Part shown: positions 544 to 9,884 of the stretch, piece after piece
How positions within the stretch are numbered: position 1 is the stretch's first letter
Layout: every line of letters starts with the position of its first letter
Origin: Lytechinus pictus
Taxonomy: Eukaryota
Reading direction: 5' to 3'
Assembly (NCBI RefSeq): GCF_037042905.1
Contig: NC_087245.1
Coordinates: 34,412,001 to 34,476,000 of the forward strand
DNA length: 64,000 nucleotides
Notes under the pieces: generated by a model
What the model was told of the DNA's origin: nothing
Seen by the model: the letters and a program-made list of their open reading frames with translations, nothing else
The model's database searches: none
Position numbers and translations under genes: made by a program

Positions 544-815
544 ATATCCTTGATACTGGAGCTATGATAGAACATGGTACAATGATTGATCATGATAGTG
601 GTGAGTTCACAGAACTGTTCACAGAACTTTATGCACTATTATATCCTTGATAGTGGAGCTATGATAGAACATGGTACAATGATTGATCATGATAGTGATG
701 AGTTCACAGAACTGTTCACAGAACTTTATTCACTATTATATCCTTGATAGTGGAGCTATGATAGAACATGGTACAATGATTGATCATGATAGTGGTGAGT
801 GTATAGAACTTTATA
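544..815 (+). repeat. 97-bp tandem repeat (about 2.8 copies), each with a Hippo-linker-like coding stretch and a splice-donor-like motif
   Basis: ATATCCTTGATA starts at 544, 641 and 738. Each unit encodes GAMIEHGTMIDHDS, followed by G|GTGAGT in copies 1 and 3 or G|ATGAGT in copy 2. Confidence 0.9.
751..794 (+). CDS. Candidate 44-nt micro-exon (or duplicated exon end) of the Hippo/MST kinase linker, GAMIEHGTMIDHDS(G)
   Basis: AG at 749-750 and GTGAGT at 795-800. The phase-1 donor joins exon 1751 in frame to give ...DHDSG-TMIEHG. The acceptor is weak and the upstream phase cannot be checked. Confidence 0.35.
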
Positions 816-1750: not shown

Positions 1751-1993
1751 GGACCATGATAGAACATGGCACAATGATTGACCACGATAGCGGGACCATG
1801 ATCGACCACGATAGCGGGACCATGATCGACCACGATAGCGGGACCATGATCGACCATGATAGCGGCACGATGGTGGACCACGACAGTGGGACGATGATCA
1901 AACATGGAAGTTTGAACGACCTGGAATCCAATATGGGCACCATGGTTATTAACAATGATGACAGCGATTCGGGTAATGACGGAACGATGAAGA
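1751..1993 (+). CDS. STK3/4: Hippo/MST1/2 (STK3/STK4-type) kinase, regulatory linker exon
   Basis: tttag acceptor (AG at 1749-1750), A|gtaagt donor at 1994, phase 1-1. Peptide GTMIEH...NMGTMVINNDDSDSGNDGTMK(R) resembles the MST1/2 linker TMIEH...GTMVIN...GTMKR. Confidence 0.93.
1768..1899 (+). repeat. Coding 24-bp minisatellite: 5 full GTM(I/V)DHDS units plus a partial
   Basis: GGGACCATGATCGACCACGATAGC-type units in frame, differing mainly at third codon positions. Confidence 0.95.
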
Positions 1994-2373: not shown

Positions 2374-2630
2374 GAACAGATACAGCCAAAGCAGACGCCT
2401 ACAAACCTCAGTTCCTAGAACACTATGAGAGACAAGATGAAGCCAAACAAGCTAAGATCTCCTCACCTCCTATCAATCCATCTAACGCACCCACGGTACC
2501 TTCTAATGCCCCTATGCACGTTGCCCCTGGTAACCATCGGGTGAGTGCTCCTCCCCCTGCTAATCAAGAGGCCCCACCCCCAAAACCACTGCAATTCCAC
2601 CGGCCATTCAACGAAGCAGACTTTGATTTT
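2374..2630 (+). CDS. STK3/4: Hippo/MST kinase exon: linker end, Pro-rich segment and lead-in to the SARAH domain
   Basis: ttatag acceptor (AG at 2372-2373), gtgagt donor at 2631. (R)TDTAKADAYKPQFLEHYERQ...EADFDF resembles MST KPSFLEYFE...DGDYEF; phases fit both neighbours. Confidence 0.93.
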
Positions 2631-3798
2631 GTGAGTTTCTGTTCTTTTCATTTGTTTTTTTTTTGTTTTACTCAGCTTATTGCTTTGCTATGATTTTGTT
2701 CCACTCATCTTAAACTAACATTAAGGAAGGTTGTGATGTACATGTAGTCTAGTGAAGTACTAAAGTTTCAGAGCAAGAGAAGCTAGAGTTACGGTTGACA
2801 GGATTTTGAATTAGTTTAGAAGTCCACAAATCATTCATAACTAACACTGTTTGTGTATGATTTCAGGCGACGTTTTCATGAACTAATTCACCTCTTTTTC
2901 ATGGTCACTTTGTAGAATAAAGGGGGTGGGTAGATAGAGGGTATTATTGAAGGGAGAAGGTATGTGTTGTGGCTATGACTTTTGTCGTTCAATAAGAGGA
3001 TCACAGTTTGGAATCCCTGGGCTGAAATTGTTTATATCTGAATAAGTAAAGTAAAATTCACAGAGCAAAATGCTGAAAATTTCATCAAAATCTGACAACA
3101 AATAGCGAAGTTATTGAATTTAAAAGTTTAACAATATATTGTGAAACATAAACTTTATATGCACGTTTCCATGCATATTAATTAGGTGGGCTGATGATGT
3201 CACAACCCCACTTTCCTTTTCTATACGCCCGTACTAGACGAGACGTATTATGGTATCATGATTGGTGTTCGTCTGTCCATCCGTCCATTAACTTTTTGTT
3301 GTAAACGCGATAACTTCAGTTTTACTTAACCTAGGCTCATGTAATTTGGTGTGTATGATACTAGCATGGATCCCAGGAAGCCTCTTGATTTTGAAGTCGA
3401 AAGGTCAAAGGTCAAGGTCACAGTGATATGCTTTTATTTTACCCTTCTAAAGTCTTTGTAAACGTGATATCTTTAGTGTAATTTATCCTAGGCTCATGTA
3501 ATTTGATGTGTATGATACTAGCATGGATCCCAGGAATCCTATCGATTTTGAGGTCCAAAGGTTAAGGTCACAGTGGCATGCTTTCATCTTACCCTTCTGA
3601 AGTCTTTGTAAATGCGATAACTTCAGTTTAACTTTACTGAGGCTCATATAATTTGATATGTATGATACTAGCATGGATCCCAGGAATCCTATCGATTTTG
3701 AGGTCAAAAGGTCAAGGTCACAGTGACATGCTTTCATCTTACCCTTCTGCAGTCCTTGTAAAGGTGATAACTTCAGTTTAACTTAACCTAGGATCATT

Positions 3799-9725: not shown

Positions 9726-9884
9726 TTGAAGCAGCTATCAATAGATGAATTACGGGAGAGATTAACGTCGTTAGATCCCCAGATGGAAGCAGAGATTGAG
9801 GAGCTTAGGAAGCGATATCAGGAGAAAAGGAGACCGATCATTGAAGCCATGGAGGTCAAGAGAAAGAGAACGCAGCATTTTTAA
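9726..9884 (+). CDS. STK3/4: Hippo/MST kinase terminal exon, SARAH domain
   Basis: Pyrimidine tract and cag acceptor (AG at 9724-9725). LKQLSIDELRERLTSLDPQMEAEIEELRKRYQEKRRPIIEAMEVKRKRTQHF* closely resembles the MST1/2 SARAH domain; TAA at 9882-9884. Absent from the ORF track. Confidence 0.96.
   Translation: MKQLSIDELRERLTSLDPQMEAEIEELRKRYQEKRRPIIEAMEVKRKRTQHF

Follow-up and report, generated by a model that had tools for sequence, protein, structure and literature searches.

A tandem array of Thr-Met motifs enlarges the Hippo kinase linker of Lytechinus pictus

The window, a stretch of 64,000 nucleotides of Lytechinus pictus contig NC_087245.1, contains on its plus strand three exons of a Hippo (MST1/2) kinase gene (1751..1993, 2374..2630 and 9726..9884), all of them exact substrings of the RefSeq L. 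pictus STK4-like isoforms X1 and X2. The Ste20-type kinase domain lies outside the window, N-terminal in protein P0026, which holds all three exons exactly. The last coding exon (9726..9884) encodes the SARAH domain (PF11629, E 1.1e-21), and the exon at 2374..2630, which has an alternative donor after 2540, encodes the hydrophobic sequence FLEHY (the second MOB1 contact) and a Pro-rich stretch. Kinase domain, SARAH domain, conserved linker Thr-Met (TM) sites and FLEHY together identify a Hippo/MST1/2 protein; the initial annotation had assigned the sequence to a Hippo linker, and the SARAH exon at 9726, with its exact RefSeq match, bears this out.

The linker exon at 1751..1993 is 243 nt long, of phase 1-1, and is flanked by an acceptor (...TTTAG) and a GTAAGT donor. 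Its open frame from 1753 holds nine TM motifs at successive spacings of 6, 8, 8, 8, 8, 8, 16 and 15 residues; eight GTM motifs are fully contained, and the Gly codon of the ninth is interrupted by the upstream intron, the split codon corresponding to G in the RefSeq protein. Thus, flanking splice sites and frame confirm the exon as initially annotated. The donor is used in a GT..AG joint from 1993 to 2374 that is present in contigs of three of four runs (X1, X4 and X19, from three studies), where the contig evidence comprises the 15 of 93 joints and 24 of 908 loose ends listed. X4 and X19 are guessed to be RNA, the record of X1 does not settle its kind, and the fourth run, X3, which is without the joint, is of DNA type.

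The exon has the phase symmetry of a cassette exon (1-1, 243 nt), and it had been proposed that it could be skipped in frame. None of the 11 camarodont RefSeq isoforms (three species) is without it, these isoforms differing at upstream exons and at the alternative donor after 2540, and its loss would remove two TMs that are invariant in 30 of 30 aligned orthologues; the proposal is therefore not upheld. For skipping in contigs, the comparison covers the same subset of joints and loose ends, and the upstream exon is probably outside the stretch compared. In the distant Hippo gene L001 a single exon of phase 0-1 encodes the linker and ends at the same T-M-K/R junction, so that the symmetry observed here probably stems from an extra intron within the array. 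The donor after 2540 is, to judge from isoform sequences, a conserved alternative splice. Its use drops the 30 residues of 2541-2630, including F-D-F immediately before the SARAH domain, and the short form is found in L. pictus isoforms X3 and X4, L. variegatus isoform X3, the S. purpuratus-like protein P0004 and Diadema antillarum P0011; a contig of run X19 ends at 2540.

Several repetitive elements surround these exons. An intronic 97-bp tandem array (544..800, plus strand, 2.6 copies) is made up of copies of the 3' end of the upstream linker exon together with its donor. It reads GAMIEHGTMIDHDSG where RefSeq has GTMIEHG..., and therefore the upstream exon in use probably lies upstream of the window. 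Copy 1 is without the internal AG, copy 2 has AT for the donor GT, and copy 3 has both. The unit is 12 nt shorter in contigs of runs X1, X4 and X3, and depth over the array reaches about 2.6x that of single copy in DNA of organism B and, in run X1, about 4x that of the surrounding intron; this array resembles a true VNTR more closely than the coding repeat does. A GAG|CT acceptor within it could yield a 39-nt in-frame cassette with one additional TM, which is absent from the RefSeq isoforms. A micro-exon at this position was considered and set aside: the depth of run X19 at 722-795 corresponds to about 52 letters and extends 7 letters beyond the candidate AG, and the copies have Ala at a position that is Thr in RefSeq; duplicated exon ends are favoured, not proven. 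A 14-residue block (GTMIEH GTMIDHDS; 1753-1793 plus the upstream exon) is doubled across the intron in three camarodonts and not in Diadema; four synonymous sites and a single codon (Ala/Thr) distinguish the intronic copy from exon positions 1753-1793. Possibly the intron originated within the array. A long MITE-like hairpin (1-541; arms 121-288 and 313-480, 86% complementary) with 16- and 42-bp repeats and very high depth in all runs is located between the actual upstream exon and the duplicated ends. A short inverted-repeat element occupies 1124-1338; one contig of run X1 runs from 1137 to 1339 without it, which suggests a polymorphic insertion. The intron before the SARAH exon contains a 150-bp tandem repeat (3299-3797, 3.3 copies by TRF).

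Two TM sites at the C-terminal end of the exon are conserved. The T-M-V-I motif at 1939..1950 (plus strand) is the equivalent of MST2 T364 and MST1 T367, the core MOB1 site, and the D-G-T-M-K-R motif at 1978..1993 (plus strand), whose Arg codon is split by the intron, is the equivalent of MST2 T378 and the sole full match to the SLMAP-FHA consensus in the linker. As T456-M-V-I and T471-M they are the same in each of the 30 orthologues aligned. They lie 31 and 16 residues before FLEHY, compared with 29 and 15 in sheep STK3, and their equivalence to MST2 sites was set by this spacing, the TM spacing of sheep STK3 being that of the human numbering. The TM expansion adjoins the two sites on their N-terminal side.

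The expansion is encoded by a 24-bp tandem repeat (1774..1899, plus strand; TRF period 24, 5.2 copies, 88% matches) that includes a perfect 77-bp run at 1780-1856. Its unit is G-T-M-[IV]-D-H-D-S, with four full copies of GTMIDHDS and one of GTMVDHDS, and the sixth TM opens a partial unit; in each unit the TM stands in the context T-M-I/V-D, preceded by S at -2 and followed by D at +3. Frame reading and TRF agree with the initial annotation that there are nine motifs, six of them at 8-residue spacing, and that the 24-bp repeat multiplies them. The unit core G-T-M-[IV]-[DE]-H is that of the TMIEH site of vertebrate MST1/2 (sheep STK3, fish STK4), and the unit is, at the level of motif comparison, a copy of the MST1 T353/MST2 T349 class. 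According to the available text of PMC5461540, the site of this class is the best MOB1 binder in human, and a 15-mer around pT353 of human MST1 binds MOB1A at 280 nM without the hydrophobic sequence. Met+1 and Ile+2 of that peptide rest on hydrophobic MOB1 surfaces, residues N-terminal to the phosphothreonine have little effect on binding, a hydrophobic residue is favoured at +3, and MOB1 reads little past +3/+4; Lys at +2 is favoured by MST kinases (PMC5461540). Of the 13 TMs in the L. pictus linker, 12 have a hydrophobic +2 residue. The +3 residue is Asp, not hydrophobic, in all five units, and acidic +3 residues were also seen in the T353-class site of vertebrate orthologues. The unit thus resembles the best-binding MOB1 site, which accords with the MOB1 type of docking motif proposed at the outset.

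His at +4, found in 40 of 41 echinoderm 8-mers, is not accounted for by MOB1, because MOB1 reads little beyond that point. This conservation would fit another reader of the array, such as MOB3 or MOB4, another FHA protein, or a property of the His and Asp residues (metal binding, a repeat fold or a sink for kinase substrate), and human MOB3 and MOB4 do bind pT367 weakly (available text of PMC5461540); the array also gives a sub-threshold Pfam match to an 8-residue beta-helix repeat (gp5; E 5e-4, 20.6 bits against a cut-off of 30.9). Such readers are nevertheless improbable, since His is mostly absent from the jellyfish units described below and an AlphaFold2 model, poor overall (mean pLDDT 48.5), has no structure over residues 307-485. 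A search of the PDB with the exon gave no relevant match (2 matches, E at least 0.2).

The repeats had also been proposed to dock SLMAP. The SLMAP FHA domain prefers E/D-G-pT-M-x-R/K, with human sites T325, T336 and T378 (PMC5663475). No repeat unit (0 of 5) fits this consensus, each having Asp at +3; in the whole linker one of the 13 TMs is a full match and three have a basic +3 residue. Human T349, of the same class as the repeat unit, is not among the SLMAP sites in the available text of PMC5663475, although T336 binds at 1.1 uM without being a consensus site (PMC5663475), so that SLMAP may bind despite a mismatch to the consensus. SLMAP docking by the repeats is thus not supported, and since the unit is of the MOB1 T353 class and lacks the SLMAP consensus, only the activating (MOB1) arm appears to have been multiplied.

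Coding minisatellites, or coding VNTRs, are marked by an in-frame unit, a recent perfect run and copy numbers that differ between species. The array shares the in-frame 24-bp unit, the perfect run and a copy number that differs by species, with four full units in L. variegatus, five in L. pictus and six in S. purpuratus; in run X3 of organism B, which is of DNA type, 24 nt are missing at 1780 and position 1825 shows an Ile->Val change, as in L. variegatus. The array differs from such VNTRs in that its amino acids are constrained and that no length polymorphism within the species was found in the two testable runs. For the latter, contigs of k=31 were modelled for alleles of 4, 5, 6 and 7 units: five units predict a downstream contig from 1827 and 3x depth at 1780 and 1825, six predict 4x and 5x depth, and four predict no break. 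The contigs of both runs, X1 and X4, are interrupted at 1827, show depths of 2.7-3.2x and 2.6-3.1x, and fit the five-unit allele; this is a small sample, two of two organism A runs from two studies, in which the placement of short contigs is assumed and rare alleles are dropped by the contigs. Synonymous differences from the window occur at 1986 (X1 and X4) and 1863 (X1), so these runs carry alleles other than that of the assembly, with the same repeat count. Equal unit counts were likewise found within two Asterias species, two Diadema species and two Apostichopus assemblies, and between the S. purpuratus RefSeq protein and a Logan protein.

The idea of a VNTR held between species; within the species, the two runs gave no support for it. 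In its original form, a polymorphic coding VNTR would set the valency of both MOB1 and SLMAP/STRIPAK docking, with in-frame skipping as a switch. The species differences, the 24 nt missing from organism B DNA, the recent turnover indicated by the perfect 77-bp run and the binding of SLMAP by human T336 are all in keeping with this, but it is rendered quite improbable by the break at 1827 and the roughly threefold depths at both positions in X1 and X4, by the mismatch of every unit to the SLMAP consensus and the status of T349, and by the presence of the exon in all 11 RefSeq isoforms.

The five units show eight distinct differences, seven of them synonymous and one Ile->Val, compared with an expected synonymous fraction of 0.17-0.29 (P 2e-5 to 1e-3, for units that share history); thus, the unit peptide is constrained. 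The 24-bp unit has turned over between species with its amino acids conserved, and we infer slippage or unequal crossover as the cause.

All seven TMs of human MST2 are autophosphorylated, and phosphorylation of MOB1 is supported only by the four nearest the hydrophobic sequence (available text of PMC4511216), which by sheep STK3 lie 15-44 residues from it. Seven of the nine exon TMs are 47-93 residues from FLEHY (repeat TMs 55-87, partial unit 47), so that the repeat TMs exceed the 44 residues of MST2 and productive bipartite binding may be out of their reach. This distance rule is confounded with sequence, because the three inactive MST2 sites also deviate (TMVK, TMRA and TMSE in sheep), and proximity to the hydrophobic sequence is unnecessary for binding of MOB1 to peptides (PMC5461540). 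The rule would favour another explanation, in which the array is tolerated redundancy: the T364- and T378-type sites would do the work while a slippage-prone unit drifts in a disordered linker, its copy number having no effect on signalling. The human sites are redundant to the extent that MOB1 binding is kept in single and double mutants (PMC4511216, PMC5461540), the adjoining intron shows how readily this sequence is duplicated, TM counts vary widely among echinoderms (8-13), and crinoids manage with 4 TMs and many protostomes with 3-4. We nevertheless consider mere redundancy unlikely, given the strong synonymous bias among the units, the equal unit counts in the close pairs named above, and the multiplication of the same motif class at the same place in separate lineages.

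Counts of TMs in orthologues, which the initial annotation had suggested as a check, revealed 8-residue arrays in several echinoderm classes and not in crinoids. Runs with this period are present in sea urchins (8-14 TM), sea stars (10) and sea cucumbers (8-10), whereas two crinoid proteins (P0042 and P0046) have 4 TM, no array and no TM[IVL]xH site. One asterozoan-like protein has 7 TM spaced 10-11 apart, hemichordates have 6-7, mostly 9 apart, and many protostomes have 3-4. A wider comparison of 115 other Hippo proteins (114 countable) was drawn from the best 120 of 462 listed by likeness to the urchin linker and is non-independent, with many isoforms and a bias towards urchin-like linkers; within it 110 of 114 have at most 7 TM. 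The four with at least 8 (8-10 TM) group together with the scyphozoan Sanderia in a single clade (support 99/96). These linkers (P0059, P0071, P0017 and P0078) have arrays of their own with periods of 6-8, the unit being mostly the 7-residue GTMIENS and of 6 residues in P0078, and the TM count is the same in all four members of the P0059 cluster.

A search of the full library gave 146 matches, 141 of them new, and a filter yielded 9 Hippo-like linkers; P0170 was picked by eye among six further matches, the rest of which look like unrelated low-complexity repeats. P0170, a kinase with a SARAH domain whose source id Clim_evm68s88 presumably denotes Corallochytrium limacisporum, has 12 consecutive G-T-M-[IV] units of periods 6-8 at residues 354-437, without a single basic +3 site; its kinase part is 53% identical (153 of 286) and forms a long branch outside animals in the tree. 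Of three loci returned by a metagenome scan, two are identical Hippo genes from a distant organism and the third is a chance match of bacterial appearance. In a set of 101 closely spaced units taken from 21 proteins, with T and M fixed by the picking rule, 96 have Ile or Val at +2, 89 have Gly at -1 and a single one has a basic residue at +3. The recurrent feature is thus G-T-M-[IV], and not the period, His or Asp; a strict 8-residue period as a functional constant is contradicted by lineages that use 6, 7, 9 or 10-11. Because the periods differ, and given the crinoid and protostome states, independent origins of the arrays would be a simpler reading than an ancestral array with losses.

The same comparison bears on another use of the units, as phosphorylation-gated caspase sites ([IV][DE]HD-S) whose cutting would release active kinase from the SARAH domain. 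An Asp-Ser-Gly-Thr-Met site of ancestral type, which we take to be the equivalent of MST1 D326, is kept upstream in the L. pictus linker, and a single cut suffices. There are six of the repeated motifs in L. pictus, and sea stars have IEHD or VEHD followed by S or T; VEHD and LEHD are named as caspase-6 and caspase-9 substrates (PMC3924713), and the MST1 linker is cut after D326 (PMC11804562), both according to the available text. With no such motif in Apostichopus, in the scyphozoan arrays or in P0170, so that it is missing from some expanded lineages, this reading, whether as an additional or a main function, is most improbable.

The closest known system is the linker of human MST2 (STK3; available text of PMC4511216 and PMC5663475), which has the same kinase-linker-SARAH layout, the GTMVI and DGTMKR sites and several TMs upstream. 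The L. pictus linker differs in having 13 TMs (four of them upstream of exon 1751-1993) rather than 7, in that a DNA repeat encodes the additional ones as tandem, nearly identical copies of a single class, and in that its TMs reach up to about 107 residues from the hydrophobic sequence. With the MST1 pT353/MST2 pT349 site (PMC5461540) the units share the pT-M-I core and, directly after it, an acidic residue and His; they differ in that most urchin units have Asp, not Glu, at +3, and that TM[IVL]xH occurs once in 78 of 111 non-echinoderm proteins and nine times in L. pictus. The Hippo linker has been described as a "molecular rheostat" between MOB1/Mats and SLMAP-STRIPAK (PMC6131212), with multisite autophosphorylation and opposing adaptors as here, and its multisite tuning is already published (PMC6131212, PMC7096357); the difference suggested by the present sequence is that the MOB1-type site alone was multiplied. 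Two structural papers, one of them PMC5461540, leave the purpose of the redundant pThr-Met sites of MST1/2 unexplained in their available text, and the options offered there are buffering against phosphatases, the loading of several MOB1 at once, and fine tuning (PMC5461540). No earlier description of TM arrays was found in the literature searched, most subscription journals being outside its reach. Given the similar arrays in other echinoderms, in jellyfish and in a distant kinase, the arrays are an enlarged version of a known docking linker and not a new system, and they are real, constrained and recurrent across lineages.

Exon 1751-1993 is the C-terminal part of this enlarged autophosphorylation linker, spliced and in frame. 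By analogy with the human biochemistry, active Hippo would phosphorylate the repeat threonines, and each pT-M-I would be an independent MOB1 site; extra copies would raise the odds of a docked MOB1 despite phosphatases, and several MOB1 per kinase may load without sites for STRIPAK feedback being added, SLMAP-type sites remaining at one full match despite multiplication of the unit. That autophosphorylation and MOB1 binding would in this way give the activating arm robustness or a gain from multiple loading, with STRIPAK feedback unchanged, is a reading for which the chances seem to us about even, and a study cited in a review (available text of PMC7096357) questions whether stable binding of MOB1 to Hippo is needed. 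On this reading the array would be a redundancy or gain element of the activating arm that changes over species-level time, as distinct from a demonstrated population-level dial. More tentatively, and somewhat doubtfully, Hippo kinases of eleutherozoan echinoderms, scyphozoans and a unicellular relative of animals might repeatedly have turned one MOB1-type site into a tandem array that loads several MOB1-LATS and raises gain without STRIPAK sites, the number of units being selected in each lineage as its setting of pathway gain.

If copy number matters, the array would provide a simple evolutionary route for retuning the gain of Hippo signalling; if it has no effect, this is an ordinary constrained coding repeat. 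Natural linkers with near-identical units at graded distances may allow the sequence of a site to be separated from its distance, and the number of sites from their function. Their site counts run from 4 in crinoids and 7 in human to 8-10 in Diadema, sea stars and jellyfish and 12-14 in camarodont urchins and P0170, and if arrays did arise repeatedly in this way, these natural linkers of 4-14 sites would be a ready-made test of the purpose of multiple sites in the Hippo linker.
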